This document shows, in pieces, positions 5,812-53,537 of a stretch of 64,000 nt of DNA. Source of the stretch: Elusimicrobiota bacterium. GTDB lineage: Bacteria > Elusimicrobiota > UBA8919. Position numbers and translations under genes: made by a program. The DNA lies in assembly GCA_043802785.1 (NCBI GenBank), contig JAZDKR010000024.1, positions 97-64,096 of the forward strand. Reading direction: 5' to 3'. Position 1 is the first letter of the stretch. Each line of letters starts with the position of its first letter. The notes beneath the pieces are model-generated. The model was given only the letters and a program-made list of their open reading frames with translations, had not been told where the DNA came from and made no database searches.

Positions 5812-5948
5812 TCCCCCAGTTGGAACAGGGTGTAGGGGATAGTGGTTAGGGGATAGTTAAAATCAACGACTTTTCTACACCCTAAATCCTACCCACTATT
5901 CCCTGTCGTTTAACTACTCCCTACTCCCTATTCCCTACTCCCTGCCTT
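5812..5948. repeat. Hairpin made of GGGGATAG-type tandem units plus the inverted copies (ctactccctattccctactccctgcc).
   Basis: Sequence gggtgtaggggatagtggttaggggatag ... ctacaccctaaatcctacccactattccct. Several GGGG runs. Confidence 0.6.
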
Positions 5949-5949: not shown

Positions 5950-7194
5950 TTATTTCAGCCACACCAGCGGGTCCTGCGGAACACCATTTTTGCGAAATTC
6001 AAAATACAACGACGCATCCTGCGAATAGACGGAAATACCGACGATACCGATATCTTCACCTTTCTGAATATCCTGCTCCTCTTTAACATTTATCTTGTCA
6101 AGATTACCATAAACCGTGTAAAATCCGCCGGAGTGGTCAATAACAACCATTTTTCCGTACGACTTAAAATCGCCCGCAAACACAACTTTTCCTTTGTCAA
6201 CCGCTGCGATATTTTGTCCGAGCGTTGACCTAATCCTGATTCCATTATTTATAATCCATGTATCAAGTTCCGGATGCTTTTGTTTGCCGAAAGTTACAGT
6301 TAAATTATTCCTTAATTCCGACGGTTCACCGTCAATAGGCCATGATATATTACCTTTCTTTTTTGACATTTTTAATCTTTCTAATTGCTCTTCCTCTTTT
6401 TGTCTAACAGTTTTAGTTGCTTTTTTTTCCAAAAGTTTTATTAACTCTGAAAGCATCGTCTCTGAATCCCGCAAATTTGCAACCTCCTGCTCATAAAAGA
6501 CCAGTTTTTTAACTACGGTTGATAATAATTTTTTTTTTTCTTTTTTTTGTCGTGCGTACAATTGTTCAGAGTTTTTTTTCTTTTCTTCAAGTTCTTTTAA
6601 TCCGTTCATCTCCGTTTCAAGTTTTATTTTAATTGTTTCATATTCCTGAACATTTTTTAGCGTCTGCGTGTAAATAAACAATTTTTGCCGTGCTAAAAGT
6701 TGAAGAAACTTATACTGTTTAACCATATCAGCAGACGAATTTGAAGAAAGTATTATTCTTGCAGGATACTGGTCGGTCATGGGTCTCCCTACACCATATT
6801 TATATGCAAATCTTAATTCTTTTTTAAATATATTTTTCCATCTAACCGTTTCAAATTTTGCAGTTTCTAATTTTAATTTCAGTGCATCAATTGATTTTTG
6901 CTGTTTTTTTATTAGTATTTTTGTTCTGTACAATTCGGCTTTTGTGGTTTCAAGTTTCCTTACAGTATTTTCAAGATGCGTTTCAAGAGATGCCTCTTTC
7001 TTCTTTATGGTTTTTATATTATTTTCTTTATGAGAAATTTCCGACTGAACACCGACAAGTTCTTTTCTACTTTCTTTAATTTTCTGTTTATATTCTTTTA
7101 CCTGTTTATCATAATCGGAAGCATAAAGGGCAGGGGTTAGGGTATAGGGTATAGGGTATAGGAAAAGCAAAAACAATAAAATAAATTTTTTCAT
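5950..7194 (-). CDS. envC: Coiled-coil M23 peptidase-domain protein, resembling the murein hydrolase activator EnvC.
   Basis: Signal peptide, a long coiled coil and a C-terminal M23 domain (VVIDHSGGFYTVYGNL). Lies next to ftsX. The N-terminal LYPIPYTLTP stretch is encoded by (GGGTATAG)3. Confidence 0.7.
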   Translation of the reverse strand: MKKFILLFLLFLYPIPYTLTPALYASDYDKQVKEYKQKIKESRKELVGVQSEISHKENNIKTIKKKEASLETHLENTVRKLETTKAELYRTKILIKKQQKSIDALKLKLETAKFETVRWKNIFKKELRFAYKYGVGRPMTDQYPARIILSSNSSADMVKQYKFLQLLARQKLFIYTQTLKNVQEYETIKIKLETEMNGLKELEEKKKNSEQLYARQKKEKKKLLSTVVKKLVFYEQEVANLRDSETMLSELIKLLEKKATKTVRQKEEEQLERLKMSKKKGNISWPIDGEPSELRNNLTVTFGKQKHPELDTWIINNGIRIRSTLGQNIAAVDKGKVVFAGDFKSYGKMVVIDHSGGFYTVYGNLDKINVKEEQDIQKGEDIGIVGISVYSQDASLYFEFRKNGVPQDPLVWLK

Positions 7195-7195: not shown

Positions 7196-7552
7196 TTATT
7201 TTCTCAATGCTTTCATAAGCGACGATAACATTTTTCCAATTTCTTCTTGTAAACTGCAAACTTTTACAAAACCTTCTTGACTAATATATCCTAAATCTTT
7301 CGCAACCATAACTTGTGTTTCCAATTCTGCTAACGAACCAAATGCTATTGATAAAAACTGTAAATATTCGCCTGTATATTGCCTCCCATATCCTTCCGCT
7401 ATGTTTGATGGAATTGAAACTGACGCCCTTCGCATCTGCGATGTAAGTCCATATATTTCCGTTTTTGGAAAATCCATTGTGGTTTTATATATCAACAATA
7501 CCAACTGATACGATTTTTGCCAAACTATAAGTTCCCGATAACTCTTAAGCAT
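7196..7552 (-). CDS. Four-helix-bundle protein of the family found in 23S rRNA intervening sequences.
   Basis: About 118 aa. The family motifs (IVWQKSYQL ... IPSNIAEGYGR ... FLSIAFGSLAELETQ) are recognisable. Confidence 0.7.
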   Translation of the reverse strand: MLKSYRELIVWQKSYQLVLLIYKTTMDFPKTEIYGLTSQMRRASVSIPSNIAEGYGRQYTGEYLQFLSIAFGSLAELETQVMVAKDLGYISQEGFVKVCSLQEEIGKMLSSLMKALRK

Positions 7553-7566
7553 ACATTCACTATTCC

Positions 7567-8412
7567 CTATCCCCTATCCCCTGCCTTTTTAATTCTTACC
7601 ACAAGGCATATAATCATCAGAACGATAGAACTTATTATAATTTCCGATTTGCTAAAAAAAACAGGTGTTTTGAAGTTTTGAACGAAAATATGTTCATTCA
7701 TCAGATATAAAATATAAAAGCCAATCCCGCCCCCTATAATAGCGTCTATCATGCCAAAAAAGATTTTTTTATCTCGCATAGCAGACACAGCGAGCGATAA
7801 CGAAACAACTGAAATAACAACAAATATAGCAAAAATTAAGTTCAGCCATCCGATCAAAGTATTGAATGTTTTATTTATAGTTAATAGATTTTCCGCTTCA
7901 ATTGAAGTGTAATAGATATCTTCCACACCGCTGAGTATTTTTATTTCTTCCGCAATTTTTTTTACAATTTCCGGATCTTTTCTCTTTAAGTAAATATCAA
8001 CAGTTGCTGGCAACGGATTTTCTCCAAGAATTTCCATCTGTTTGGCAAACTCGGGATTTTTTCTGAATTCATCCATTGCTTCCGTTTTTGAAGTATATTT
8101 TATTTTGTCAATTATTTTTATATTTTCAATTTTTTTGATAAGTTCGTTTTTCTGATGAACATTTAATTTATCGTCAATAAATGCAACTATTTCAACCCGC
8201 TCGGAAAGTTCGGAAAGATAGTAGGAAAGATTTTTCACGATAAGTGAAAAAAAACCGTAAAACACAACCGAAATTGTAACAAATGCTATAACAAGCAGCC
8301 CCTGCAGATTTCTTTGAAATCTAACCACAGGAGCAGGTGATATTTTTTTCATAACGGACTTCATTGTACCATATTTTAACTGCATGTCAACCAACAACCC
8401 TTCACTCTTCAC
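7567..8412 (-). CDS. ftsX: Cell-division permease-like protein FtsX.
   Basis: FtsX-like topology: one TM helix, a periplasmic domain and three C-terminal TM helices. Sits next to the EnvC-like gene. The C-terminal KAGDRG and the TAG stop are encoded by the GGGGATAG repeat. Confidence 0.65.
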   Translation of the reverse strand: MKSEGLLVDMQLKYGTMKSVMKKISPAPVVRFQRNLQGLLVIAFVTISVVFYGFFSLIVKNLSYYLSELSERVEIVAFIDDKLNVHQKNELIKKIENIKIIDKIKYTSKTEAMDEFRKNPEFAKQMEILGENPLPATVDIYLKRKDPEIVKKIAEEIKILSGVEDIYYTSIEAENLLTINKTFNTLIGWLNLIFAIFVVISVVSLSLAVSAMRDKKIFFGMIDAIIGGGIGFYILYLMNEHIFVQNFKTPVFFSKSEIIISSIVLMIICLVVRIKKAGDRG

Positions 8413-14318: not shown

Positions 14319-14410
14319 AAAAAAGACAGAGATTAGGAAAATGGAAATTAGGATATTAGGAAAAATCCAAACCCTAATCTCTCAATCTCCCAATCTCTTA
14401 ATCTCTGTAG
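14319..14410. repeat. Hairpin built from GAGATTAG tandem units and their inverted copies (ccctaatctctcaatctcccaatctcttaatctc).
   Basis: Same family as the repeats at 18000-18030, 25640-25700, 36525-36625, 44365-44390 and 53458-53535. Confidence 0.65.
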
Positions 14411-14823: not shown

Positions 14824-14972
14824 GTTAAAATCAGGGTTTAGGGTTTAGGGTTTAGGGTTTAGGGTTTAGGGGTTAGGGTGTAGTTAAAAGTCATTGACTT
14901 TACTATACCCTATCCCCTACACCCTGCCTCTAACTACACCCTATCCCCTACACCCTGCCTCTCTTATTGTCT
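14824..14972. repeat. (GGGTTTA)5-6 telomere-like tract, capable of forming a G-quadruplex, followed by two copies of a roughly 27-bp direct repeat (ctacaccctatcccctacaccctgcctct).
   Basis: Read directly from the sequence. It lies between rpmA and rplU. Confidence 0.8.
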
Positions 14973-15280: not shown

Positions 15281-15352
15281 ATTCAGGATTAAGTCGTAAG
15301 GATTAAGAAGTCAGGATTAAGAATTAAGTAAAAACTTAATCCTGCTTTTTTT
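15281..15352. repeat. GGATTAAG tandem repeat with an inverted copy, followed by a T-run. This forms a terminator-like hairpin on the plus strand.
   Basis: Sequence caggattaagaattaagtaaaaacttaatcctgcttttttt. Confidence 0.6.
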
Positions 15353-17999: not shown

Positions 18000-18365
18000 G
18001 ATTGTTGGTAATAAAGATTAGGAGATTAGGAAAAAGAGTTAACTCCTCAAAACCAATTACTACTGCTGTGTCCCTAATTTCTTGACATTTGGCTGTTCCC
18101 GACAAATCGGGGCTCGTGGCAATCTCGGTATTAAAGTCGGGATTGCCTGCCCGACAGCTGTCAGGCGGGCTTCGGGCTTTGCCCTCGCAATGAGGCCGTG
18201 TCACAATTACCGTTTTTTTTGGTTTTGTCATTCCCGCATGTCTTTGGCGGGAATCCATTCTTCGACAATGACACAACTTGCTGGATTCCGTGTCAAGCAC
18301 GGAATGACGGACTTTTCAACAATTATGACACAGCCGCAATGACATGTAAAATATTTTATGCCCCC
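18000..18365. repeat. Cluster of nested palindromic elements spanning about 360 bp with no coding capacity.
   Basis: Motifs gtcattcccgc / cgggaatcc, ggattccgtgtcaagcacggaatgacgg and cgcaatgac. The plus-strand ORFs here (17965-18488) are artefacts of the repeats. Confidence 0.7.
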
Positions 18366-19452: not shown

Positions 19453-19625
19453 AAAAACCCCTCCTTTTTTCAGTAGTAAGGATTAAGTTATAAGTTATAA
19501 GAATTAAGAAGTCAGGATTAAGAATTAAGTAGTAAGAATTAAGTAAAAACTTAATCCTTAATCCTTAATCCTTATCATTTACCACTTACCACTTACCACT
19601 TAATCCTACCTTGCCTTATTCTACC
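19453..19625. repeat. Arrays of GGATTAAG / CCTTAAT and CCACTTAC tandem units forming inverted repeats.
   Basis: Sequence aggattaag(n) ... cttaatccttaatccttaatcc ... ccacttaccacttaccactt. Confidence 0.7.
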
Positions 19626-25594: not shown

Positions 25595-25780
25595 ACATTT
25601 ATTCTATTAATGGGACGCCCCTACGGGGCTAACATCAGAGATTAAGAGATTGGGATATTAGGAGATTAGGGTTTTGACTTTTCCTAATTTTTATTCCATT
25701 TCTACAAACAGGTCAGCCCGATGGGGCTAAAAATCGTATTGCGTATTGCGTAATTCATAATTCATAATTCATAATTGCCC
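25595..25780. repeat. Composite repeat block: a ctattaa-hairpin element, a GAGATTAAG hairpin, a second hairpin element, then (cgtattg)2(ataattc)4.
   Basis: Read directly from the sequence. Confidence 0.6.
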
Positions 25781-28091: not shown

Positions 28092-28109
28092 TGTTTCGCC
28101 TCCTGTTCA

Positions 28110-28160
28110 GGATTAAGGATTAAGTAGTAAGGATTAAGTTTTTTCTTAATCCTGCCTTTG
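28110..28160. repeat. GGATTAAG hairpin (aggattaag tttttt cttaatcct).
   Basis: Lies between glnB and glnN. Confidence 0.65.
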
Positions 28161-29815: not shown

Positions 29816-30077
29816 CAGAAAGAATTCCAAAATTTCTAACGTGGTCAAGTGCTTTTTTGGTTTTCCCGAATGAAAAATCTTTAATCCCACTTTGGAATTA
29901 AAGACCTCAATGTCTGACGAACATTTTCTAACCAACTATGGTTTGTAAACTATTTTTTAACTAATACAAACAAAATATATCTTGTTACATATTCTCACTG
30001 TTGTCATTGCTTCGTTGTCCCGACTTGTCGGGACTCCTCGCAATGACGCTTTGCATCAATTTACTCCCGAGCGACCT

Positions 30078-30420
30078 TCATATTTCTGTTGGTATAACCT
30101 CTTTTGAGCGAAACTCTTTTGGGACATAAATATATCCGGAATATGGTTTTTTTTCTTTAACAACCATTCCGGCAAGACCTTCGCCTATTTTAAGTGGTGG
30201 TTTTTTCAAATACTCATTTGAAATTGACTGGGAAGCCCTGATTACAAGTTCATTGTTTTCATTTAAAAGCATTAACGAACATATCTTGAAACCAAATACT
30301 TCAGCAGTAATTGTTACAATCAATTTAAGGATATCGTCAAGATAAAGTTCTGAAGTTATTGCCTGTGATATTTTAGTGAGTGCCTCTATTCACTTACACT
30401 TTTTTCTTTCATATTTTTTT
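30078..30420 (-). pseudogene. Truncated, frameshifted paralog of the GAF-ANTAR gene at 24823-25515. Only the N-terminal third remains.
   Basis: About 70 percent identity to residues 30-120 of the full gene, plus an upstream stretch in another frame. No ANTAR domain. Confidence 0.7.
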
Positions 30421-30559
30421 CCTCCACAAAATAAAAAATCCTCATACCGTCTTTGGCGGATGGCAACATATCATCCGCCTATGGCATGAGGACTACATCG
30501 TCCTTTACTTTAATTATATCAAAAGCAATATAATTTTGCTAATGACTAACTTTTAGATG

Positions 30560-30652
30560 TTTTTCTTTTCTATTCTGGTTAATAACAATTCCACCGATAA
30601 CCAAAGTAAAAGCTAACGCCACAAAAAATAACAAAGTAATCTCATTCATATC
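30560..30652 (-). CDS. Small hydrophobic peptide of 36 aa, the second copy.
   Basis: MNEITLLFFVALAFTLVIGGIVINQNRKEKHLKVSH. Same coupling arrangement as the first copy. Confidence 0.5.
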
Positions 30653-30858
30653 CCGTCTCCTGTATCAAGTATCACACCAATAATTAAAAACGCAAGAAAC
30701 AATATTACACCAACAATAAATGTAAATAGCGAAAATTTATCTGGCGTGGCGATTTTTCCTATAATAAGGGAAGCAAAAACAATTTGACTTAAATTAAAGA
30801 AAACTTTTGCTAAATTTTCTTTTTGCTTTTTTGTTAATTTCATTTCTGACATAATCAT
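30646..30858 (-). CDS. Small two-TM membrane protein, the second copy.
   Basis: Paralog of 29583-29786. The promoter TTGACA-N17-TATGAT is conserved at 30859-30887. Confidence 0.55.
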   Translation of the reverse strand: MIMSEMKLTKKQKENLAKVFFNLSQIVFASLIIGKIATPDKFSLFTFIVGVILFLAFLIIGVILDTGDGI

Positions 30859-31081
30859 ACAAAATTAAAAAAATTTGTCAAGTACTTTTTTTGAGAGTTA
30901 TTCAGGTTTGTGGCAAAAATATGAAGTTATTAAATTGTCAAGCCAGAAATTTATTGTATCATTTCCGTATCATCATTGTGAGATTGGTATTGTCAAAAAT
31001 AAAATGAAAAAAAAGACTACCACGAAAACACGTCTGACTGCCATGCCTGTCGTCAGCAGGCGTGGCTATGCTTCTATATTT

Positions 31082-34022: not shown

Positions 34023-34583
34023 CTACCGTTTATTGAATAGATTCATTGTCTTCTGAATACCGCTCTCAATAAAAACGGAAACGGCATCAGAAGCCCTCAA
34101 AATCGCCGACTTCATTTTTAACGCTTCTTCTTTCGTAAAATCTGAAAGGACAAAATCAACAGCATCAATATCAGTCCCGGGGCGACCAATGCCTATTTTG
34201 ATACGGCAGAACTCATTTGTGCCGAGCGTTTCAATTATTGATTCCACACCGTTATGCCCGCCGGAAGAACCGCTTTTTCTTATCCTCATCCGCCCAGATT
34301 CAATATCCATATCATCGTGGACGACAATAATATCGCTAAAATCAGGACTACCTGCATGGTATTTTTTTACTAATTGTTTTATCGCCAAACCGCTCCTATT
34401 CATAAACAAGGTCGGTTTTACAATAAGGAAATCATCACACAAGGATATAACCGCGCAATCCTTATATTCCTTCCATTTCAGTGATTTATATTCGGCAAAA
34501 TTATCAAGCACCGCAAAACCTATATTGTGCCTCGTATCTGAATACTTTTTTCCGGGATTCCCCAAACCGACTATAATCTTCAT
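34023..34583 (-). CDS. pth: Peptidyl-tRNA hydrolase.
   Basis: MKIIVGLGNPGKKYSDTRHNIGF. The stop TAG is supplied by a GCAACTAC-family element (34002-34023). Confidence 0.9.
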   Translation of the reverse strand: MKIIVGLGNPGKKYSDTRHNIGFAVLDNFAEYKSLKWKEYKDCAVISLCDDFLIVKPTLFMNRSGLAIKQLVKKYHAGSPDFSDIIVVHDDMDIESGRMRIRKSGSSGGHNGVESIIETLGTNEFCRIKIGIGRPGTDIDAVDFVLSDFTKEEALKMKSAILRASDAVSVFIESGIQKTMNLFNKR

Positions 34584-34609: not shown

Positions 34610-34735
34610 ACTTCTTAAATCAGAATTAAGACATCAGTAATAAGGATTAAGCCGCTCACCCCGACAAGTCGGGGTTCGCTTTAAGTATTAAGTTTTTTCT
34701 TAATCCTTACAACTTAATCCTTAATCCTGCTTCTG
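34610..34735. repeat. GGATTAAG hairpin element with an embedded ccccgacaagtcgggg hairpin.
   Basis: Read directly from the sequence. Confidence 0.6.
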
Positions 34736-35467: not shown

Positions 35468-35570
35468 AAAATACCGCTAACCCGACGCAAAACTTACACG
35501 CTAAACCGACGCTAAAATGTTTTGCGTCTGTTCTGCGTTCTTGTTCCGCGTCTGTTTTGCGCTCCTTTTA
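35468..35570. promoter_or_regulatory. ACGCTAAA / GCGTCTGTTTTGCG phased repeat array (B1), upstream of rplY.
   Basis: Related to the arrays at 47156-47232 and 49262-49350. Confidence 0.55.
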
Positions 35571-36509
35571 TCACACAAACAATTCCGACACTGATTTTTC
35601 GTCGTGAATTCTTAATATCGCATCAGCCAGAAGTTTTCCAACGGACAAAACCTTTATCTTTTTTGATTTTGATTTACCGTCTGATATAGAATTGGTAACA
35701 ACCACTTCTTTTACCGACGATTTTTCTATTTTTTCGTAGGCACTACCGGCAAAAATTCCGTGAGCGGCTGTTGCATAAATATCATTTGCACCAGCTTTTT
35801 TCAGTGCTTCAACGGCTTTAGTTAGTGTTCCAGCAGTATCAATCATATCGTCAACTATTATAATGTTTTTGTTTTTTATATCCCCAATAATGTGAATTAC
35901 AGCTGCCTCGTCAGGTGAAAGACGCCTCTTATCTATTATGGCAAGCCCGACTTTCAGTCGCTTGGCAAATGAACGGGCACGCTCAACACCGCCGGCATCA
36001 GGAGATACAACAATAACATCGGACAGTTTTTTCTTTTTGAAATAGTCAACAAGCACAGGACGGACAAACAGATGGTCAACAGGTATATCAAAAAATCCTT
36101 GAATTTGTCCCGCATGTAAATCAAGTGTAAGAATCCTGTTGGCACCGGCAACAGTTATCAAATTGGCAACAAGTTTTGCTGTTATCGGAACTCGCGGCTC
36201 AACTTTTCTGTCCTGACGGGAATATCCGTAATAAGGCATCACAGCCGTAATTCTTCCGGCAGATGCACGACGAAGAGCATCAATGATTATGAGAAGTTCC
36301 ATAAGGTTTTCGTTTGCAGGACTGGAGGTTGGCTGAACTACAAAAGTATCGCAGCCGCGTATGTTTTCCATTATTTTTACACTAACTTCTCCGTCAGGAA
36401 AACGACCTGTTTCCAAAGCACCTGCCGGAACTTTAAGAAAACCACAGACCTCTTTTGTTAAATTGCGATTTGCCGAACCGCTGAAAATTTTTAATTTACC
36501 GTAACTCAT
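35571..36509 (-). CDS. prs: Ribose-phosphate pyrophosphokinase.
   Basis: MSYGKLKIFSGSAN and the overall Prs family pattern. Confidence 0.9.
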   Translation of the reverse strand: MSYGKLKIFSGSANRNLTKEVCGFLKVPAGALETGRFPDGEVSVKIMENIRGCDTFVVQPTSSPANENLMELLIIIDALRRASAGRITAVMPYYGYSRQDRKVEPRVPITAKLVANLITVAGANRILTLDLHAGQIQGFFDIPVDHLFVRPVLVDYFKKKKLSDVIVVSPDAGGVERARSFAKRLKVGLAIIDKRRLSPDEAAVIHIIGDIKNKNIIIVDDMIDTAGTLTKAVEALKKAGANDIYATAAHGIFAGSAYEKIEKSSVKEVVVTNSISDGKSKSKKIKVLSVGKLLADAILRIHDEKSVSELFV

Positions 36510-36524: not shown

Positions 36525-36625
36525 ACACCAGAGATTAGGAGATTAAGAAATTATGAGATTAGGGATGAGGCAAAATCTCAATATCCTAATCTCCTAATCT
36601 CCCAATCTCCTAATCTCTCTTTTTT
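36525..36625. repeat. GAGATTAG tandem and inverted hairpin element.
   Basis: Sequence cagagattaggagattaagaaattatgagattaggg ... ctcaatatcctaatctcctaatctcccaatctcctaatctctc. Confidence 0.7.
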
Positions 36626-38172
36626 ATCACCTGTCTCCCTCTCGCAATTGCCAGTTTATTGTCAGGAACATTCTCAGTAATGGTTGAGCCGGCAGCAATC
36701 AAAACCCCTTTTCCTATTTTAATAGGCGCAATGAAATTAGTATTGCTTCCGACGAATGTGGAATCGCCAATTTCCGTTTTATGTTTATTTTTACCGTCGT
36801 AATTACAGGTAATCGTGCCGGCACCTATATTTATATTTTTTCCGAGTGTAGAATCACCGATATATGAAAGATGTGAGACCTTTGTATTTTCACCAATAAT
36901 TGATTTTTTAATCTCCGAGAAATTACCGATGAGAGCGTGCCTTGCTATTTTTGTTTCCTTTCTTATATGAGAAAACGGACCTACTCGGACATCGTCGGCA
37001 ATTTCGGCTCCGCAAACAAAAGATGCCTTTATTTCAACATTTTTTCCGACGATGCAATCCTCAATATAACTAAAAGGTCCAATCGTGCTGCCCGTTTTTA
37101 TTTTCGTTTTGCCTTTGATAATTGTTGAAGGTAAAATAGTGACATCTTTTTCAATCTCAACCGTTTCCTCTATGTGAACTGTCCCGGGATTGACAATCGT
37201 AACGCCGGCGAGCATTAGATTTTTAAGAACCTTTTCTCTGATGTAATTCTCCGCTTGGGCAAGTTCGCATCTGTTATTTATTCCCATAATTTCCTTGAAA
37301 TCCTTAATTTTATAGGCGATAACTTTTTTGCGGGAACCGCTTCGACTTAAAATTGACACAACATCCGTCAGATAATACTCGCCTTTTGAATTATCGTTTT
37401 TTATCTCGCGCAGTGCAGAAAAAAGTTCTTTCGACGAAAAGACATAAATACCTGAGTTGATTTCCTTTATTTTTTTGATTTCATATGAGGCATCTTTTGC
37501 CTCAACAATTGACTTAACCGTTCCATCGATATTTCGGACAATTCTTCCGTAATGCGAAGGATTTTCTATCTCGCAAGTAAGCACTGTCGCAACAGCTTTT
37601 TCTTTTTTGTGAACTGATAGCAATTTGTCAACAGTTTCTTTCGTAAGAAGCGGAACATCACCGGAAAGTATAACCAAATCGCCTGTTCCCTCACAACGGG
37701 ACTCCGCACATTTAACAGCATCACCGGAACCAAGTTGTTTTTCCTGTTCAACAAAAACCACCTGACTAAGAGGTTGTCCGACAACCCCTGTTTTTTGGTT
37801 TTGACCGTCATTCCGTGCTTGACACGGAATCCATTCTCCGACGGTAACACAATTTTCTGAGAGCCTGCCCCGCGCTTTGACACGGGGGACCTTTTGACCA
37901 TTGTCGGACAACCTCCCAAGAGCCGTCATGCTTGCCATTCTATCGCTTATCGCTTTTTTGACAAGTTCTGCTTTGTGCCCTACAACGACAATTTTTTTAT
38001 CAAAACCGTTGTCTATAATTTCAATGACCCTTTCAATAATTGTTTTGCCCAAAATTTTATGAAGAACTTTCGGCGTTTCCGACTTAAACCTTGTTCCTTC
38101 ACCTGCAGCAAGAATAATACAAACAATACTTCCCATAGCAATTGAAATACAATGGAACCACGATGGAGACAC
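36610..38172 (-). CDS. glmU: Bifunctional GlmU (UDP-GlcNAc pyrophosphorylase / GlcN-1-P acetyltransferase). Carries an in-frame insertion of about 60 aa, at about 37764-37947.
   Basis: N-terminal LAAGEGTRFKSETPKVLH, a C-terminal left-handed beta-helix (hexapeptide) domain, and the glmU-prs-rplY-pth synteny. The insert encodes WIPCQARNDG, which is also present in a spurious ORF in the 18000-18365 repeat block. Confidence 0.85.
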   Translation of the reverse strand: MSPSWFHCISIAMGSIVCIILAAGEGTRFKSETPKVLHKILGKTIIERVIEIIDNGFDKKIVVVGHKAELVKKAISDRMASMTALGRLSDNGQKVPRVKARGRLSENCVTVGEWIPCQARNDGQNQKTGVVGQPLSQVVFVEQEKQLGSGDAVKCAESRCEGTGDLVILSGDVPLLTKETVDKLLSVHKKEKAVATVLTCEIENPSHYGRIVRNIDGTVKSIVEAKDASYEIKKIKEINSGIYVFSSKELFSALREIKNDNSKGEYYLTDVVSILSRSGSRKKVIAYKIKDFKEIMGINNRCELAQAENYIREKVLKNLMLAGVTIVNPGTVHIEETVEIEKDVTILPSTIIKGKTKIKTGSTIGPFSYIEDCIVGKNVEIKASFVCGAEIADDVRVGPFSHIRKETKIARHALIGNFSEIKKSIIGENTKVSHLSYIGDSTLGKNINIGAGTITCNYDGKNKHKTEIGDSTFVGSNTNFIAPIKIGKGVLIAAGSTITENVPDNKLAIARGRQVIKKRD

Positions 38173-38236: not shown

Positions 38237-38309
38237 CTGGGGAGGATGGATTCGAACCATCGTAATGACGGCTCCAAAGGCCGTTGCCTTACCGCTTGGC
38301 TACTCCCCA
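38237..38309 (-). tRNA. tRNA-Gln (anticodon UUG).
   Basis: Cloverleaf folded by hand. Sequence is TGGGGAGTAGCCAAGCGGTAAGGCAACGGCCTTTGGAGCCGTC...GGTTCGAATCC...CTCCCCA. It resembles the E. coli tRNA-Gln 5' half. Confidence 0.7.
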
Positions 38310-38914: not shown

Positions 38915-40438
38915 TCAAATATATCCATTAGATTTTTGCAGTAAAAATAAAAATAAATGCGCTGGTATAATTGCAACATTTTCAAAAAGTACTGTATCTT
39001 TGCTTATTAAGAAATATTTTTTTATTCTATCAAGAGAGGCAATATCTCTTTTTGTAACATTGTTTTGATATTTTACTTCAATAGCTGTAAATTCATCATT
39101 TGTATTTTTATAGAGATAATCGATTTCCCGCGAATCATCATAATATAACCATAAAAATGTTATCATTTCCTTCATAGGAAGCGATTCTTTTGTCATAGAT
39201 ATATGATTCCCAACTATTCCCTCAATCATATTACCTGTAATTGTATCATCTAACAGCATTTCTGAACTTACTTCGTATCCGTCTTTACCTTTCAACCAAC
39301 TGTTCATTGAATAACACAAAAAAGGATCAAAGAAGAATATTTTTTTATCTGCTTTAAGTTTATATGTATTTTTATTTAGGTCATACGCATAGAACATTCT
39401 TACAAGTAATGATTCTCTTAATATCTCTGTATACGATATTACTGTTTTATGGTCGGTACTATTGTTTATTTCATGAGCAACATCATTGAAACTATATCTG
39501 CTTCCTTGTCTCCTTAATACACCACCAATTAATTCTCTCATAGTGTCTTCATTTTTTACCATCCTTGATAAATCTCCTTTTAAAACATCTACATACCGTT
39601 CATATATCTCATTGTTAATTTTTTCTTCTTTTTTCTCGCCAAAATACTTATTTGAAATATATGAATTTATGGATTCCGGATAGCCACCTGTAATAAGGTA
39701 CATTCTAAATAGCATATACAACTCTTTTTGATACGGAAGCAATTTTCTCACTGCATTATTGAATTCTTCATATTTTTCAATATCAGCCGAATTCATACTA
39801 TCTATTTCGCTATAAAATTGTCTTAAAGATGCAATTAAATTGGTATCCTGATTACCGTGCCACTCGTGAATATGGTTAATCTGTAATACAAATTCTCTAA
39901 ATGATAGTGGGAAGAACATTTTTTCATTCCCTTCAATATCTCTACCGGGAAGTCTTTCCTTTTTGCTTTTTATATCCCACGGATTTGAACCAGTGGCGAT
40001 TATTGAGCAGTTTTCAGTTACACCGCTATCAGCAAGAGTTTTAAGTTCTAAATTCCAACTATCAACAGCTGATATTTCATCCAGAAAAATATAGAGTGGC
40101 TTTTTGTCCATTCCAATGTTACTTAAGAAAAACTTAATAGCGTCGCCTAATTCCTTTCTTGTTTTACCTGTTAAATTATCGCATGAAAGATAAAATATGG
40201 ATTTTGGGTCAACATTTTTTTTGTCGATTAATTCCTTTATTGTTTGTTTTATCCAAACAGTTTTCCCTACCTGACGCGGTCCTCTTACAACATAAATATT
40301 TTGAGGTTGAGGATCCATCCAAACTCTGTTAAATGTAATTGGTTTAGAAGCCAATTTCTTTAAATGTGGATCATATAAAGAAAAGTTTTTACCAAATTTC
40401 CACCATAAGTTTGCTTCAGCAATTTCTTGTGTTTTCAT
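38915..40438 (-). CDS. AAA+ ATPase, which I recall as the COG1373-like AAA_14/DUF4143 family.
   Basis: P-loop VVRGPRQVGKT, Walker B FLDEISAV, a TGS motif and a C-terminal ...AIEVK... region. 507 aa. Confidence 0.55.
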   Translation of the reverse strand: MKTQEIAEANLWWKFGKNFSLYDPHLKKLASKPITFNRVWMDPQPQNIYVVRGPRQVGKTVWIKQTIKELIDKKNVDPKSIFYLSCDNLTGKTRKELGDAIKFFLSNIGMDKKPLYIFLDEISAVDSWNLELKTLADSGVTENCSIIATGSNPWDIKSKKERLPGRDIEGNEKMFFPLSFREFVLQINHIHEWHGNQDTNLIASLRQFYSEIDSMNSADIEKYEEFNNAVRKLLPYQKELYMLFRMYLITGGYPESINSYISNKYFGEKKEEKINNEIYERYVDVLKGDLSRMVKNEDTMRELIGGVLRRQGSRYSFNDVAHEINNSTDHKTVISYTEILRESLLVRMFYAYDLNKNTYKLKADKKIFFFDPFLCYSMNSWLKGKDGYEVSSEMLLDDTITGNMIEGIVGNHISMTKESLPMKEMITFLWLYYDDSREIDYLYKNTNDEFTAIEVKYQNNVTKRDIASLDRIKKYFLISKDTVLFENVAIIPAHLFLFLLQKSNGYI

Positions 40439-41310: not shown

Positions 41311-41329
41311 TTTATCGTAAAGCGAGGGA

Positions 41330-41548
41330 ATCTTGCTGTGCGTGACTGCGGAGCATCAATTTATAAGGTCATTGCGAGCGTTAGCGCTTTGTGACAGAAG
41401 TTCCCGATAGTACTTGTCATTGCGAGGTGAAACCGCCCGCCAAACTGTTACCGAAATTGTGAAGTATTACACATAGGCGGGTGGCAATCCCATAGCGAGA
41501 TTGCTTCGTCGGTCGCCCGAGGCGACCTCCTCGCAATGACACTTCACC
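41330..41548. repeat. Cluster of CATTGCGAGG / CCTCGCAATGAC palindromic elements.
   Basis: gtcattgcgagcg..., gtcattgcgaggtgaaaccgcccgcc ... cctcgcaatgacac. Relatives at 29990-30075, 44150-44290 and 48270-48312. Confidence 0.7.
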
Positions 41549-42348: not shown

Positions 42349-42365
42349 TAAAATCCGTGAATCGT

Positions 42366-42417
42366 GTAGTTGCCCGATTTATCGGGCATAAAGGCGCTCA
42401 ATAAATTGAGCAACTAC
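42366..42417. repeat. Complete 52-bp element bounded by terminal inverted repeats, gtagttgcccgatttatcgggcataaaggcgctcaataaattgagcaactac.
   Basis: The two ends, gtagttgc and gcaactac, are inverted repeats of each other. Confidence 0.8.
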
Positions 42418-42477
42418 AAAACTGCGACTACACAAACCATGCAACATTGAAATTCTTCACCTGCGGTGAACCTACTC

Positions 42478-42550
42478 GGCGATACAACAATCTAACGCTG
42501 ATATTCGCAAATATTCGCGTTGTCTCTTATTCGCGTCCATTCGCGTTTTT
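42478..42550. promoter_or_regulatory. CGCGAA phased array (A5), upstream of the MeTr gene.
   Basis: Sequence ctaacgctgatattcgcaaatattcgcgttgtctcttattcgcgtccattcgcg. Confidence 0.55.
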
Positions 42551-44137: not shown

Positions 44138-44149
44138 AAAAACCCCCGT

Positions 44150-44290: not shown

Positions 44291-44390
44291 TGATTACAGC
44301 AGAGAAACCATGCCACTAACACAACGCACGGCGCCCGATAAATCGGGCAACTACATCTGTCTTTCTCTCCTAATCTCCTAATCTCTGCTT

Positions 44391-45884
<1,494 letters not shown>

Positions 45885-45936
45885 AACATAGCCGTTGTCG
45901 TGTAGTTCAAATTCCCTATTCCATATTCCCTACCTA

Positions 45937-47232: not shown

Positions 47233-48882
47233 ATTATCACAAATTTTTTCGGCAAAATCAAGTAATTTTTTTGTTTTGCCGAGTGAATCTGTTTCAGAGT
47301 ATGTCCTTAAAATCGGCTCTGTTCCCGACGGACGAAGCAATAGCCAACCTGTCCCGCCAAGGCGGGACGGATCAAAAATTATTTTTATTCCGTCATAGGT
47401 TCTGATTTCCTTGATCCCGCCGAGGCGAGACGCGAATTGCCACGAATTTCCGCCAAAGGCGGACGAATTGGGACGAATTTTTTGTTCAATCTGTTTAACA
47501 AATTCTTGCTTATCAACGGGCTTTGAAAGTTTTATATCTCTTCTTAAATAATATGATTTCCCGAATCTTTTTTGCAAATCATCAACTAACTGTGAAAGTT
47601 TTTTCTTTGTTTGCGAAAGCATCTCGGTAATTAAAAGTGCATTTAAGATACCGTCTCGTTCCGGTATGCTGCCTTTCCATCCGTAACCGCCGGATTCTTC
47701 ACCACCGAGCAAAACATTTTCAGCGAGCATTTTTTCACAAACATACTTGAAACCGACAGGAACCTCTTCAAAAGGGAGACAAAATTTTTTCGCAATTCTT
47801 TCGGAAAGATACCCAAGTGAAATCGCCTGAACAACTTTTCCTTTTATTTTTCTTCCTTCTACAAGATACAACAAAATCAGAGGAAAAACAATATGCGGTG
47901 AAAGATATCTGCCTTTGTCGTCTATAACACCCAAGCGGTCAGCGTCGCCGTCAAAAGCAAAACCTACGGCTGCCCCATTTTTCAATACCACTTTTTTTAG
48001 TTCTGTGAGATTTTTTTCTATCGGCTCGGGATTTACTCCGGCAAATAATGGGTCATGAGAATTATGTATTGAATAAATCTTTGAGATTCTTCGTCCCGTT
48101 ATGCGGGACTCAGAATGACTTTGCGAGTCATTTTTGAATCCGCCACAGACGGACTCAAAAATACCAACGCCGCTTCCATGCATATAATCAAGGACAATTT
48201 TGGATTTTGATGATGGATTCAATCTAACAAGTGATTTCAGATATTTTTTGTAATCGCTGATAATATCCACTCTTCGCGTCATTGCGAGGTCGTCACTGCG
48301 ACCTCGCAATGACAATTGTTGGATATCCTCATTATTAGTTTTGACAGCACTCTTATACAGATGTTTTGAAATTGTATTTATGATTTTTTCCGAAACAGAA
48401 CCTCCGTATTGAAGTTTTATTTTTAGACCGTTCCAGTCGGGCGGATTATGACTTGCCGTTATCATCACCCCAAGACAATTGTTTTTTTTACAAAAAAATG
48501 AGACCGATGGCGAAGTTGCTGCCGTCTGCGAAACCGCCGAATGTATCCCATTCGCAGAAATAACTCTTGCAACATGGAGTGCAAATTTCTCCGAAAGAAA
48601 CCTGTTGTCATACCCGACGATAACGACAGGGGATAGGGGGTAGGGGATAGGGTGTAGCGGCGAATGTAAATTCGCTAAATTTGTCCGCCTAGGCGGACCG
48701 CTACACCCTACTCCCTCCACACTACACTCTGCCTTTATATAATCCGCAATCGCCTGAGCAACTATTCCAACATTCTCAAAGGTAAAGTCCCTTGCAATTA
48801 TCCCGCGCCACCCGTCAGTACCAAACTTAATGGCAGGGGATAGGGGATAGGGGATAGGGGATAGTAGTTTTTGTTTTTCCAT
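47194..48882 (-). CDS. Phosphomannomutase / phosphoglucomutase family enzyme carrying about five in-frame repeat insertions.
   Basis: FGTDGWRG, TASHNP, RPSGTEP. Inserts at about 48834-48870, 48627-48729, 48270-48312, 48069-48132 and 47415-47472. Confidence 0.8.
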   Translation of the reverse strand: MEKQKLLSPIPYPLSPAIKFGTDGWRGIIARDFTFENVGIVAQAIADYIKAECSVEGVGCSGPPRRTNLANLHSPLHPIPYPLSPVVIVGYDNRFLSEKFALHVARVISANGIHSAVSQTAATSPSVSFFCKKNNCLGVMITASHNPPDWNGLKIKLQYGGSVSEKIINTISKHLYKSAVKTNNEDIQQLSLRGRSDDLAMTRRVDIISDYKKYLKSLVRLNPSSKSKIVLDYMHGSGVGIFESVCGGFKNDSQSHSESRITGRRISKIYSIHNSHDPLFAGVNPEPIEKNLTELKKVVLKNGAAVGFAFDGDADRLGVIDDKGRYLSPHIVFPLILLYLVEGRKIKGKVVQAISLGYLSERIAKKFCLPFEEVPVGFKYVCEKMLAENVLLGGEESGGYGWKGSIPERDGILNALLITEMLSQTKKKLSQLVDDLQKRFGKSYYLRRDIKLSKPVDKQEFVKQIEQKIRPNSSAFGGNSWQFASRLGGIKEIRTYDGIKIIFDPSRLGGTGWLLLRPSGTEPILRTYSETDSLGKTKKLLDFAEKICDNLTTAKQTQNISR

Positions 48883-52307: not shown

Positions 52308-53436
52308 ATTTTAATGTTTTCTTTGAATAATTGTAATAAGAAATATGCGGGCGACCTTGTTTATCAAGCATTATGGATGTATCAAATCCGACAATACCTT
52401 CGGCATCAATCGTCTGAATTTTCCATTCAGAACCCGTCCAGTAAGCATATTTAAGGTCAGAGTTGCCATAATACGAAACGTGCGGAGTCACATCAGGCAA
52501 CTTTGCATCCAGAGTTATTGATGTATATTCACCAACATAACCTTCACTGTCAACCGTCTGGATAGCCCATGCAGAACCAGTCCAGTGAGCATATTTTAAA
52601 TCCCTATTGGTAGCATCATAATATGCTATATGCGGAAAATTATTGCTATCAACCACTATGGAACTATCTTCACCAACTTCACCTGTTGAATCAACCGTCT
52701 GAATATCCCACGAAGAACCAGTCCAACGAGCATATTTTAAATCACCGTTGGTAGAATCATAATATGCTATATGCGGAAAATTATTGCTATCAATCGCGAT
52801 GGAGGTGAACTTGCCTACCGCACCGGCTGAATCAACCATCTGAATATTCCACGAAGAACCAGTCCAATGAGCATACTTTAAGTCGCCGTTGGTAGAATCA
52901 TAATATGCTATATGTTTGAAATCGTTACTAACCGCTATGGAACTATCTTCACCGACTTCGCCTATTGAATCAACCGTCTGAACATCCCACGATAAACCAT
53001 CCCAACGAGCATACTTTAAATCCTTGTTGGTAGAATCATAATACGCTATATGTGAAAAATTGCTACTGACTGCTATAGATGTGAACTTGTATGTTTCACC
53101 GTTAGACGGAGTATATTGTTTTTCCCAAGAATTGCCTGTCCATTTAAGATACCCTACACCTTTTTTGCTACAAAACGAAAGATTAGGAAAATCATTACTA
53201 TCAAGGCACATTGAAGCATACTCTCCTTCTTCATCACTTTCTGAAGTAAGCGTTTGGATATCCCAGCCGTCAACTGGCAAAGATACCACCACTTTTTCGT
53301 CTGTTAGATTTACATTTAATCTTCTTTCCGACTCACAATAAAGGCAGGAAGTGGTAAGTAGTAAGTGGTAAGTGGTAAGGATTAAGAAGGCAGAATTAAG
53401 TAACTTGTTCATCTGTACAATCTGTAATTTTCTCAT
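52288..53436 (-). CDS. Secreted protein made of about 6 tandem repeats of roughly 46 aa (YYDSTNGDLKYA[HR]WTGSSW.IQTVDS.G.VG..SSI ... PHIA).
   Basis: Signal peptide. At the DNA level this is a tandem unit of about 138 bp with high identity. Confidence 0.6.
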   Translation of the reverse strand: MRKLQIVQMNKLLNSAFLILTTYHLLLTTSCLYCESERRLNVNLTDEKVVVSLPVDGWDIQTLTSESDEEGEYASMCLDSNDFPNLSFCSKKGVGYLKWTGNSWEKQYTPSNGETYKFTSIAVSSNFSHIAYYDSTNKDLKYARWDGLSWDVQTVDSIGEVGEDSSIAVSNDFKHIAYYDSTNGDLKYAHWTGSSWNIQMVDSAGAVGKFTSIAIDSNNFPHIAYYDSTNGDLKYARWTGSSWDIQTVDSTGEVGEDSSIVVDSNNFPHIAYYDATNRDLKYAHWTGSAWAIQTVDSEGYVGEYTSITLDAKLPDVTPHVSYYGNSDLKYAYWTGSEWKIQTIDAEGIVGFDTSIMLDKQGRPHISYYNYSKKTLKYVTKKK

Positions 53437-53535
53437 TTTTTTTCCTCCTCCATTAACGACAGAGATTAGAGATTAGAGAATTAGAAAAATCCTTAATCAC
53501 TTAATCACTCAATCTCTTAATCTCCAATCTCTGCC
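53340..53535. repeat. GGTAAGT/GGATTAAG and GAGATTAG hairpin elements flanking the start of the repeat protein.
   Basis: Direct reading. Confidence 0.65.
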
Positions 53536-53537
53536 TT

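Follow-up and report, generated by a model that had tools for sequence, protein, structure and literature searches.

A dispersed class of IVS-like hairpins built from inverted arrays of 7-8-nucleotide units in an uncultured Elusimicrobiota bacterium

Tandem repeats of heptameric units have been reported in bacteria since 1990, and intervening sequences (IVSs) of 23S rRNA that carry an S23p gene have been known for equally long. To our knowledge, neither has an accepted origin or function. The STRRs of cyanobacteria are described as direct arrays. REP/BIME elements and RPEs are dispersed short palindromes at gene boundaries in operons; REPs, which stabilise the upstream mRNA, go together with RAYT transposases, while RPEs are known as in-frame insertions in genes for proteins. 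Both REPs and RPEs have a conserved sequence and no tandem sub-units, the REP/BIME sequence being an imperfect palindrome of 20-40 nt with a GTAG-type head.

The IVS of Coxiella, which RNase III excises, has a terminal stem of 28 bp and, before the start of S23p, three GACAGAT heptamers in tandem, the copy number of which varies between strains (PMC4990558). RNase III excision is also known for the IVSs of Leptospira and Salmonella, and the small Salmonella-type IVSs are ORF-less (PMC4990558). In Xanthomonas, 70-75 convergent pairs of GGGAATC arrays form inverted repeats, and array length varies between species while the single or paired type is kept (Rehm et al. 2015, PMC4692102). That study does not mention S23p, RNase III or copies in coding sequence. 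G-quadruplexes (G4) have been proposed for these arrays and for the GGGGAYT repeats of Nostoc, and few paired inverted arrays have been reported in Nostoc PCC 7120. In the Beggiatoaceae, TAACTGA repeats form 169 direct sets versus one indirect set, lie mostly just upstream of start codons and, in one orientation, contain stop codons in all three frames (MacGregor 2015, PMC4679880).

The window analysed here, a stretch of 64,000 nucleotides from an uncultured Elusimicrobiota bacterium (contig JAZDKR010000024.1), contains hairpins in which tandem 7-8-nt G-rich units are followed by the same units inverted. They appear to add a new case to a type of repeat that is known but little understood. We consider them to be, probably, ORF-less copies of the palindromic element type known from the IVSs of 23S rRNA; the copy at 7133-7590 has kept an ORF. 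Slippage, together with homogenisation of the arms, would drive their evolution. Since the window copies are not in a 23S rRNA gene, they are called IVS-like here rather than IVSs. In an Rfam search at gathering thresholds, no family matched the hairpins and the sole match in the window was a tRNA; the window is free of rRNA, and its elements lie between or inside protein-coding genes.

The element from which the analysis started is the following.

36527..36620 (-): hairpin of the GAGATTAG family, between glmU (36610-38172) and prs (35571-36509)

Its units, GAGATTAG x4.1 and AATCTCCT x4.8, form two arms of 34 nt each (36530-36563 and 36585-36618) that are 88% complementary, so that the original prediction of complementary arms at 36525-36625 holds for this site. 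As sense (-) RNA, the element folds into a 37-bp stem with a minimum free energy (MFE) of -51.7 kcal/mol and a z of -8.19, and none of 200 shuffles folded as well. The first unit contains the glmU stop codon TAG; the ftsX stop codon is likewise in the first unit of an array.

The class of hairpins is real and well beyond chance. Ten full hairpins were found in the window, together with an eleventh that is degenerate (25636-25700). Arm complementarity among them is 74-92%, and the eight long hairpins have 29-50 predicted pairs and z values from -3.1 to -8.2 (-6.0 or lower in seven). An earlier approach, in which TRF arrays were paired by reverse-complement consensus, was too strict: units of 7 and 8 nt are mixed within the arrays, and no more than 4 pairs were returned. 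A register-degeneracy scan, which detects inverted repeats with several pairing registers that are shifted against each other by multiples of 7 or 8, found 16 such loci in the window versus 0-4 (mean 1.6) in 20 first-order Markov simulations. Per 100 kb, this gives 14 in the window, compared with 1.3 in unrelated bacterial loci that total 1.35 Mb. The remaining ORF-less hairpins and arrays are listed below.

5822..5946 (-): hairpin of GGGAGTAG/GGGAATAG units, between the M23 peptidase gene (5950-7194) and the S41 peptidase gene (4444-5805); z -3.06; 5' flank TAAAAAGGCAG
14324..14410 (-): hairpin of the GAGATTAG family, between rpmA (L27) and obg (13038-14318); -40.4 kcal/mol, z -7.23
14830..14960 (-): hairpin of GGGTGTAG/GGGGATAG versus CCCTAAA x7, between rplU (L21) and rpmA (L27); 8-12 pairing registers; -70.3 kcal/mol, z -7.56
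15281..15346 (-): asymmetric hairpin of the GGATTAAG family, one G-rich unit versus three to four C-rich units, in the rplU (L21) 5' UTR; z -3.37
18010..18032 (strand not assigned): single array of two GAGATTAG units, without partner
19470..19612 (-): compound hairpin of GGATTAAG and GTGGTAAG units, upstream of recA (18370-19452); pairs in nine registers, shifted by multiples of 7; -50.5 kcal/mol, z -7.61
25636..25700 (-): degenerate hairpin of the GAGATTAG family, one arm decayed
28108..28156 (-): asymmetric hairpin of the GGATTAAG family, between the P-II gene (28197-28538) and the type III glutamine synthetase gene (25782-28091); z -3.29
34615..34733 (-): hairpin of the GGATTAAG family, between the L25 gene (34736-35467) and ORF 34023-34583; nested GC-rich hairpin in the loop; -44.8 kcal/mol, z -7.58
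44363..44388 (-): single GAGATTAG array (GCAG + 2.5 units), directly past the AdoHcy hydrolase stop codon, without inverted partner
48620..48740 (-): in-frame hairpin of the GGGGATAG family, residues 48-88 of the PGM/PMM gene (47194-48882); two nested GC hairpins in the loop; z -7.37
48833..48868 (-): single array (CTATCCCC)x4, translated as PGM/PMM residues 5-17 (LLSPIPYPLSPA), without partner
53345..53395 (-): single array of CTTACCAC/CTTAATCC units with a CCTGCC end, translated as residues 14-31 of ORF 52288-53436, without partner
53455..53536 (-): hairpin of GAGATTAG/GTGATTAAG units, between the Wzy-like gene (53538-54866) and ORF 52288-53436; -33.4 kcal/mol, z -6.04; 5' flank TAAAAGGCAG

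The stems are long and AT-rich with a period of 7-8, and the stem base CAG...CTG is nearly always there, often as AAAGGCAG (24 of 27 array ends). Unit families repeat at several window loci and in sister genomes, with three to four families coexisting, and the loops of 5822-5946 and 14830-14960 are homologous. The proposal that one architecture is shared by differing unit sequences is therefore borne out across the sites, and the list of sites behind it was right in part. Full hairpins stand at ten sites, one of which (14830-14960) it had lacked, and about six of its entries are single arrays instead of hairpins, including those placed at 18000-18030, 44365-44390, 48833-48868 and 53345-53395. 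The entry 19585-19610 belongs to the 19470-19612 hairpin, and the entries 7133-7171 and 7556-7590 are not two elements but the arms of one palindrome. Some of the listed sites are not intergenic: 48620-48740 and 48833-48868 lie within the phosphomutase gene and are translated in its frame.

Aligned with 1tuo_A, residues 14-47 of the PGM/PMM protein match 8-41 and residues 86-548 match 50-462, with some 30 extra residues between them; by this comparison, the 48620-48740 hairpin is apparently a 41-codon in-frame insertion in a conserved enzyme. The ORF at 34023-34583 is, judging by synteny, pth, and its orthologue in relatives matches PF01195. An exact look-up of the RecA encoded in the window gave no record. 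The element at 15281-15346 lies just downstream of a promoter-like site (15380-15353, 12/12 sigma-70-like) and therefore in a 5' UTR.

The ORF-bearing copy is comprised of two arms that enclose ORF 7196-7552 and pair across it in both the MFE and the centroid structures.

7556..7590 (-): 5' arm, AAAAAGGCAG(GGGATAG)x2 GGAATAG, which provides the ftsX stop codon in its first unit
7196..7552 (-): S23p gene in the palindrome loop, 118 aa; PF05635 (E 1.7e-40) and TIGR02436 (E 1.4e-38)
7133..7171 (-): 3' arm, (CCTATAC)x3 CCTAACCCCTGCC, translated as LYPIPYTLTPA within the hydrophobic N-terminal region of the M23 peptidase

The arrays that flank the ORF share units and the AAAGGCAG terminus with the ORF-less hairpins 5822-5946, 14830-14960 and 48620-48740. 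The encoded protein belongs to the 23S rRNA intervening-sequence protein family, an Avd-like four-helix bundle and homologue of Avd; Avd-family proteins bind nucleic acid. An assignment as the accessory protein Avd of a diversity-generating retroelement (DGR) was rejected, with NF033474 scoring 38.2 bits against a cut-off of 80 and with ftsX and the M23 peptidase gene as neighbours. PADLOC returned no match for the protein. By tblastn of the window and the comparison loci L001-L090, no S23p copy was found besides 7196-7552. None was present in 13 loci (190 kb) of close relatives, namely L081-L090 by tblastn and L179-L181 by their called genes, and no ORF-bearing copy with GAGATTAG or GGATTAAG arms was seen in the DNA examined.

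Elsewhere, S23p genes are almost always found between inverted arrays of 7-8-nt G-rich units. An inverted repeat between the flanks was detected for 48 of 62 metagenomic S23p genes, and the flank inverted-repeat score of S23p loci had a median of 16.8 versus 8.2 for mismatched loci and 8.0 for the direct orientation. When periods of 5-12 were tried on the 48 cassettes, the best arm period was 8 in 31 and 7 in 17, and no other period came first; the upstream arm was richer in G than in C in 47 of the 48. S23p genes of cultured genomes lie between the same type of arms: (GGGAGTA)n in Nostoc edaphicum, (CAGGAGT)n in N. punctiforme, (CAGGTGA)n in Anabaena 90, (GGCAGGAG)n in Gemmatirosa and (GGTTCAA)n in Riemerella. 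The GGGAGTA of N. edaphicum is also a unit of the window hairpin 5822-5946. In addition, a true 23S IVS of Azospirillum lipoferum (L176; LSU rRNA match of 511.8 bits) has its S23p ORF between (GGACAGA/GGACGGA)n arms, and ORF-less hairpins made of cassette units adjoin S23p cassettes in L135, L143, L164 and L169. In the literature, no paper stating a general link between S23p and such arrays was found, only the description of the Coxiella IVS heptamers.

Several orthologous sites are empty in some relatives and filled in others. The glmU-prs junction measures 0-16 nt in L081, L082 and L085, which lack the focal hairpin, and is filled by GAGATTAG units in the window, by GGATTAAG in L083 and L084 and by GTTGATAA in L087. 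At the L21-L27 junction, L090 has a hairpin of units different from those of the window's 14830-14960. In L179-L181, ftsX overlaps the M23 gene and there is no S23p gene. At the M23 start, the window, L180 and L181 have a common right boundary, ...CTGCC followed by (C/G)TTTATGCTTCCGA, and a T-rich loop remnant. The units there are GGGTATAG in the window, and GGAAGTC and GTGGTTAT in the hairpins of L180 and L181, which lie in the M23 signal-peptide region and hence inside coding sequence. The proposed drift of unit sequences is thus seen here at a fixed site. A comparison of unit number in relatives, which had been put forward as a check, gave differing units at orthologous sites but no difference between the near-identical L088 and L089, whose prs-L25 arrays are identical, an apparent difference being due to gene calling; this is the sole near-identical pair available.

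A mobile element with target-site duplication was rejected, since no duplication was visible in two comparisons of filled with empty sites. With regard to MITEs, inverted termini (AAAGGCAG...CTG) are seen, duplications are not, no transposase was seen, and S23p, the product of the only ORF-bearing relative, is not known as a transposase. On the other hand, the original prediction that the hairpins do not represent a single mobile element is not supported. The CAG...CTG ends, homologous loops, recurring unit families, empty sites, in-frame copy and ORF-bearing copy indicate dispersed related copies, not independent local inventions.

Like the 23S IVSs of Coxiella, Leptospira, Salmonella and Alphaproteobacteria, the window elements have terminal inverted repeats, a long stem and an optional PF05635 loop ORF, which is present in one copy and absent from the others. 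The stem is of the tandem-heptamer type, as in Coxiella (GACAGAT x3; PMC4990558) and Azospirillum (GGACAGA/GGACGGA), and the elements share with IVSs both the coexistence of ORF-less and ORF-bearing forms and a sporadic occurrence among close relatives. They differ in that they lie in mRNA operons, a 5' UTR and coding sequence instead of helix 25 or 45 of 23S rRNA, and in that several unit families, many with 8-nt units, occur in one genome. Furthermore, RNase III excision has been demonstrated for IVSs, whereas for the window elements we infer it by analogy.

The hairpins also belong with the paired tandem-heptamer repeats of the Xanthomonas GGGAATC type, with units here of 7 or 8 nt. Both are G-rich, mostly intergenic and near the end of the upstream gene, although the Xanthomonas arrays have one unit per genome, occur in a high-GC host and are read as G4 formers (PMC4692102). 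The cyanobacterial STRRs (Calothrix, Anabaena, Nostoc) and the Nostoc GGGGAYT repeats resemble them as intergenic tandem heptamers of which one genome has several unit families. In Nostoc and Anabaena, S23p genes also lie between inverted heptamer arrays, with GGGAGTA common to the window, but these repeats occur in a different phylum. The TAACTGA repeats of Beggiatoaceae are likewise intergenic tandem heptamers that may overlap the upstream stop codon and have a patchy phyletic spread, but lack hairpin architecture (PMC4679880). The in-frame copy at 48620-48740 recalls RPEs; unlike REPs and RPEs, the window elements are made of tandem sub-repeats and have no sequence similarity to them, and a scan of about 30 ORFs of the window gave no RAYT.

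Briefly, the proposed element is a pair of inverted arrays of 7-8-nt G-rich units with the G-rich array 5' on either strand, closed by CAG...CTG, and its autonomous-looking form holds an Avd-like four-helix-bundle S23p (PF05635) gene in the loop. Copies are found at gene boundaries in same-strand operons, in a 5' UTR, and in coding sequence where the frame permits, and unit families would also spread between sites within the genome. Arrays may gain or lose units by replication slippage, as had been proposed; slippage is a natural source of unit-number change, and Coxiella strains differ in IVS heptamer copy number (PMC4990558). Template switching within the hairpin (quasi-palindrome correction), together with selection for pairing, may keep the arms complementary, and the combination of these processes would turn over the unit sequence while architecture and site persist.

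An element transcribed in a - strand operon would form a 25-50-bp imperfect duplex of the type that RNase III excises from 23S rRNA. Most likely, it would be cut between cistrons, and the half-stem left behind could protect the upstream 3' end and uncouple neighbouring genes; a structural role at the RNA level, as envisaged in the original prediction, is plausible in this respect. Cleavage could not be universal, since efficient cutting of the copies in coding sequence (PGM/PMM, and the M23 signal-peptide region of L180 and L181) would be harmful, and many copies may bring the cell no benefit and simply be tolerated as passengers. S23p genes might also home into the loops of existing hairpins, instead of the hairpins being remnants of S23p elements; in the hairpins 34615-34733 and 48620-48740, the loops already hold other nested hairpins.

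It has also been proposed that each hairpin arose in place by slippage and was kept as a terminator or 3'-end stabiliser, with neither common origin nor mobility. Constant architecture with units that differ between loci, the turnover of units at one orthologous site (the M23 start), and the over-representation of bacterial heptamer repeats, which has been ascribed to polymerase slippage (PMC4692102, PMC4679880), would all fit. Separate origins are difficult to reconcile with the same unit families, AAAGGCAG...CTG termini and homologous loops at separate loci, with the 41-codon insertion, or with the general association with S23p genes. The terminator part was based on T-runs, for example at 15281-15352, and such runs do follow the stem in about 6 of 10 elements, but on the + strand, whereas the genes of the window all lie on the - strand. 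Read in the sense direction, the runs consist of A and precede the stem, and a U-tract is missing in nine of the ten full hairpins, 14324-14410 having the sole T-run after its stem. With stems that are also long and AT-rich, the elements are not intrinsic (Rho-independent) terminators. In the region 5000-24900, to which a simple consensus terminator scan was applied, none of the eight listed sites was flagged, the element at 15281-15346 is in a 5' UTR, and most elements are internal to operons, where the next ribosome-binding site follows after a few nucleotides. This model as a whole is regarded as quite improbable. The same T-runs could instead mark antisense terminators or insulators, stopping antisense or read-in transcription across the 64-kb same-strand gene block: on the + strand, about 6 of 10 elements have an A-run before the stem and CCTTTTTAT, CTTTTTTTAT, CTCTTTTTTAT, CCTTTTAT or similar after it. 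The T-run is, however, largely the complement of the upstream gene's TAA stop and of the AAAGG of the element terminus, and several elements lack it. The stems and the scan result are as unfavourable here as for sense terminators, and neither the S23p link nor the coding-sequence copies would be explained, so that this function has only a slim chance of being correct.

The elements might also be purely selfish or neutral DNA palindromes, like RPEs or MITEs, that persist where harmless and whose folding as RNA is of no consequence. The elements are dispensable, as the orthologous sites of relatives that are equally close can be empty; copies in coding sequence are tolerated as peptide insertions, and single arrays and decayed copies are present. 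Nor was there a clear sign of selection on the sense RNA when wobble pairs and MFE were compared on both strands: the - strand folds better for five elements and the + strand for four, with two within 0.3 kcal/mol, and G.U counts are 28 versus 21. Against this reading, glmU-prs, L21-L27 and the M23 start are occupied in several relatives despite complete unit turnover, which suggests maintenance or a very strong preference for these sites. In bacteria, palindromes that are long and perfect are as a rule unstable, yet the arms are still 74-92% complementary, and the strict G-first polarity (47 of 48 cassettes) needs a cause. Overall, we regard neutrality as unlikely. Finally, the arrays could act as G4 units or as tandem sites for a pentameric S23p. 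The (GGGGATAG)x4 at 48835-48864 and the (AGGGTTT)x7 at 14833-14883 fit the G4 motif, and the Avd homology of S23p would be in line with nucleic acid binding. Similar heptamers, with 70-75 inverted pairs, have been shown to form G4 (PMC4692102). However, G4 cannot explain the class because the GAGATTAG, GGATTAAG and GTGGTAAG families have no G-runs, and the G-rich arm is paired within the hairpin; such roles seem very unlikely. A CsrA-type GGA sponge or a Shine-Dalgarno decoy was set aside as well: many units contain GGA or AGGAG, but neither idea applies to all unit families.

Beyond the preferred reading of the hairpins as IVS-like elements, STRRs, the paired arrays of Xanthomonas, the Elusimicrobiota hairpins and 23S IVSs could all be one pan-bacterial family, whose complete form would carry the S23p gene and in which S23p would create or maintain the arrays, although we consider so broad a unification rather doubtful. 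By analogy with Avd in diversity-generating retroelements, S23p would perhaps work with a reverse transcriptase. A G-rich array 5' on both strands (47 of 48 cassettes) fits an addition of G-rich 7-8-nt repeats to both 3' ends of a DNA break, followed by joining. Within such a family, arrays may sometimes be domesticated, as where the hydrophobic core of a signal peptide is encoded by a C-rich arm.

Taken together, the window and the loci compared with it connect two puzzles, tandem heptamers and S23p-bearing IVSs, through the S23p cassettes and through the same arms without the gene across operons and even in coding sequence. If this pattern is genome-wide, it would offer a testable handle on a possible action of S23p on the arrays and on a possible segmentation of operon transcripts by RNase III. 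For annotation, the elements add stop codons, N-terminal extensions and in-frame insertions, and gene callers will misread all three. A genome-wide distribution would also explain frequent breaks of metagenome contigs; the contigs of L083 and L084 both stop inside such a hairpin.

The hairpin at 36527-36620, between glmU (36610-38172) and prs (35571-36509), is built as the original prediction described: its arms (36530-36563 and 36585-36618; 34 nt, 88% complementary) consist of GAGATTAG-type octamers in 4.1 and 4.8 copies, and the sense-strand RNA folds into a 37-bp stem (-51.7 kcal/mol, z -8.19). Inspection and folding of all the predicted sites gave ten full hairpins and one degenerate hairpin, whereas about six are single arrays, two of which (7133-7171 and 7556-7590) are the arms of a larger structure around the ORF 7196-7552. 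Three unit families, each present at four to six loci in the window, were distinguished:

Family 1: GAGATTAG
Family 2: GGATTAAG, with GTGGTAAG
Family 3: GGG[GTA][AGT]TAG

Tandem units allow pairing in more than one register, so the scan sought inverted repeats in which at least two good diagonals are offset from each other by a multiple of 7 or 8. This register scan returned 16 loci in the window versus 0-4 (mean 1.6) in 20 Markov simulations; the density per 100 kb is 14 in the window and 1.3 in unrelated loci totalling 1.35 Mb. The hairpin class is therefore real. No Rfam family matched the hairpins.

The window (G+C ~38%) is a bacterial chromosome segment with housekeeping genes including uvrD, ftsX, recA, folD, serA, obg, type III glutamine synthetase, P-II, glmU, prs, and the L25 gene. 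All credible genes lie on the - strand, GC skew is negative throughout, and the closest GTDB species representative is only 65% identical. A tRNA gene (38237-38309, - strand, Rfam 63.7 bits) occupies the 742-nt spacer from the AAA_14/DUF4143 ATPase gene (38915-40438) to glmU. The typical sense layout of an element is a stop codon, an A-run, GGCAG, G-rich units, a loop, C-rich units, CTG, 4-10 nt, a ribosome-binding site, and ATG. The first repeat unit contains the stop codon of glmU at the focal hairpin and of ftsX at the 7556-7590 arm, and the site sequences show closure by CAG at 24 of 27 array ends. T-runs had been taken as a terminator feature; however, they follow the stem on the + strand, antisense to every gene, and a sense-strand T-run follows only one element. 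A terminator scan of 5000-24900 flagged none of the predicted sites there, and it placed a 12/12 promoter-like site directly upstream of 15281-15346. The hairpins are not terminators of the window genes. MFE and wobble counts were mixed between the two strands and do not demonstrate selection on the sense RNA.

The ORF 7196-7552 is enclosed by the two 'half' sites, 7133-7171 and 7556-7590, which pair across it in the MFE and centroid structures alike. The 118-aa product belongs to the '23S rRNA-intervening sequence protein' family (S23p, PF05635, E 1.7e-40), with a further match to TIGR02436 (four helix bundle protein). Avd, an accessory protein of retroelements, is a homologue, but the product scores below the cut-off of the Avd model. 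The surrounding arrays have the units and the AAAGGCAG terminus of the ORF-less hairpins, and the palindrome is organised like a large intervening sequence (IVS) of 23S rRNA. In Coxiella, the IVS combines a 28-bp terminal stem with an S23p ORF in the loop, is excised by RNase III, and carries three tandem GACAGAT heptamers ahead of the ORF, in copy numbers that differ among strains (PMC4990558).

The same arrangement was found around other S23p genes. Among 80 metagenomic loci encoding S23p relatives (52-64% identity), 62 had enough flank, and in 48 of these the two 160-nt flanks of the gene share an inverted repeat (median score 16.8, versus 8.2 for mismatched loci and 8.0 for the direct orientation). 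The repeat usually starts 0-50 nt from the ORF, whose stop codon often lies within the first C-rich unit. Over periods of 5-12, the best one for the arms is always 8 (31 loci) or 7 (17 loci). G exceeds C in the upstream arm in 47/48, and the G-rich arm is 5' on both strands because the arms are inverted. S23p arms in cultured organisms are as follows:

Nostoc edaphicum: (GGGAGTA)n, the unit of the window hairpin 5822-5946
N. punctiforme: (CAGGAGT)n
Anabaena 90: (CAGGTGA)n
Gemmatirosa: (GGCAGGAG)n
Riemerella: (GGTTCAA)n

In Azospirillum lipoferum the arrangement occurs in a true IVS: LSU rRNA (511.8 bits) is split there by an S23p ORF, whose flanking arms are (GGACAGA/GGACGGA)n. At four loci (L135, L143, L164, L169), S23p cassettes have ORF-less hairpins with matching units as neighbours. 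Further ORF-less hairpins of this build, tandem plus inverted heptamers with unrelated units, occur near prs in Acidobacteriota, Planctomycetia/Planctomycetota, and deltaproteobacterial MAGs (L013, L029, L031, L033, L037, L043, L047, L021); the GACAGAN units of the Planctomycetia locus L031 resemble the Coxiella IVS. One ORF-less heptamer hairpin in L037 immediately follows a tRNA-like sequence. The Anabaena gene lies between cas6 and cas4 on plasmid pANA02 (L178, Anabaena sp. 90), and '23S rRNA IVP' is named among CRISPR-associated domains in one published paper.

Orthologous junctions in close relatives (L081-L090, L179-L181) compare as follows:

glmU-prs, L081, L082, L085: 0-16 nt, without hairpin
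glmU-prs, window: GAGATTAG hairpin
glmU-prs, L083/L084: GGATTAAG hairpin; contigs break within it
glmU-prs, L087: GTTGATAA/CGTATCA hairpin
L21-L27, window: GGCAG + GGGTGTAG...
L21-L27, L090: GGCAG + GTGG(A/T)TA...

L083 and L084 are two independent Logan assemblies with position 1 inside the hairpin upstream of prs, and these repeats seem to break short-read assemblies. At the ftsX/M23 junction of three relatives (M23 peptidase 85-88% identical), ftsX overlaps the M23 start and the S23p gene is absent; an S23p gene in the loop at this site is thus confined to one lineage, that of the window. Just inside the M23 gene, L180 has a (GGAAGTC)n...(ACTTCTC)n hairpin and L181 a (GTGGTTAT)n...(ACTTATCC)n hairpin, which share the end boundary ...CTGCC|(C/G)TTTATGCTTCCGA with the window C-rich arm. 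From these three junctions it follows that site and architecture persist while units are replaced. The predicted shared architecture with differing units is supported. Elements 5822-5946 and 14830-14960 have the loop sequence AAAGTC..TGA.TTTTAAC in common; this and the recurrence of each family indicate that families have also spread between sites.

Some copies are translated. Element 48620-48740 lies inside the phosphomutase gene (47194-48882), whose residues 14-47 align to 1tuo_A 8-41 and 86-548 to 50-462; the ~30 extra residues coincide with the hairpin, and residues 5-17 are encoded by a C-rich array (48833-48868). In the window M23 peptidase (5950-7194), the C-rich arm encodes LYPIPYTLTPA in an N-terminal hydrophobic, signal-peptide-like region. 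The whole hairpin is translated in frame as such a region in L180 (10020-10120) and L181 (10020-10110), with the charged start from the G-rich arm and the hydrophobic core, ending ...VYA|SD, from the C-rich arm. Residues 14-31 of ORF 52288-53436 (53345-53395), which follow closely on an ATG with a strong ribosome-binding site, include LLNSAFLILTTYHLLLTTSC encoded by a C-rich array, which looks like a signal or lipoprotein leader; this ORF also holds a 141-nt tandem repeat (3.7 copies, 52550-53061). In L087, a related Elusimicrobiota MAG, a C-rich array (CTACCCT x3, ending CCTGCC; 19480-19520) lies inside the YchF GTPase coding region.

On the best-supported reading, the window hairpins are IVS-like palindromic elements of one family. 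The number of units would change by slippage, arm complementarity would be kept by hairpin-templated correction and selection, and copies would spread within genomes. Once transcribed, an element would form a 25-50-bp duplex of the kind cut out of rRNA by RNase III. At the molecular level, the most likely outcome would therefore be that RNase III cuts between cistrons and leaves behind a 3' half-stem with a protective effect. Given the copies in coding sequence, we argue that cleavage cannot be efficient everywhere. As to the S23p link, the hairpins may descend from cassettes, or else hairpin loops may serve as homing sites for S23p genes. Paired inverted heptamer arrays in Xanthomonas, 70-75 per genome, were read as G-quadruplex formers (PMC4692102, in which S23p and RNase III are unmentioned). 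Heptamer repeats in Beggiatoaceae give stop codons in all frames (PMC4679880). Full-text searches returned no general statement of S23p genes between tandem 7-8-mer inverted arrays, and the window hairpins are therefore a fresh case of a known repeat kind; the S23p-array link in general is a lead that merits a genome-wide test.

Several other repeats were observed in the window. A second intergenic set of the same plan, with 10-11-nt units (ACGCGAAT-type then ATTCGCG-type; ACGCGAAACAG-type then TTTAGCGT/TTTCGCG-type), occurs at 2937-3004, 9555-9646, 42349-42550, and 50400-50510, also at 35468-35570, 47140-47193, and 49257-49356, with relatives in L083 (3780-3881) and L087 (12475-12585). On the + strand, one arm of the L21-L27 hairpin (14833-14883) reads (AGGGTTT)x7.3, the exact sequence of the plant-type telomere repeat. 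Short GC-cored hairpins headed TGTAG (TGTAGTTGCCCGATTTATCGGGC...) form a separate family (42365-42418, 44335-44360, 45786-45900, 16053-16138, 23103-23138) that resembles REP sequences, and the loops of 34615-34733 and 48620-48740 contain small nested hairpins akin to them. A longer repeat, starting GTCATTGCGAGG...CGAAGCAATC and ending ...CACCTCGCAATGAC (41311-41548, 44138-44300, about 30080-30140), is another dispersed palindromic element. The 1.9 kb at 29187-31081, without an ORF of at least 100 aa, holds a module in two tandem copies, each with a promoter of the TTGACA type, a pair of small membrane-like ORFs, and a hairpin; the ammonium transporter gene appears to have its 5' part here, the listed ORF (28728-29186) covering the C-terminal 152 aa only.
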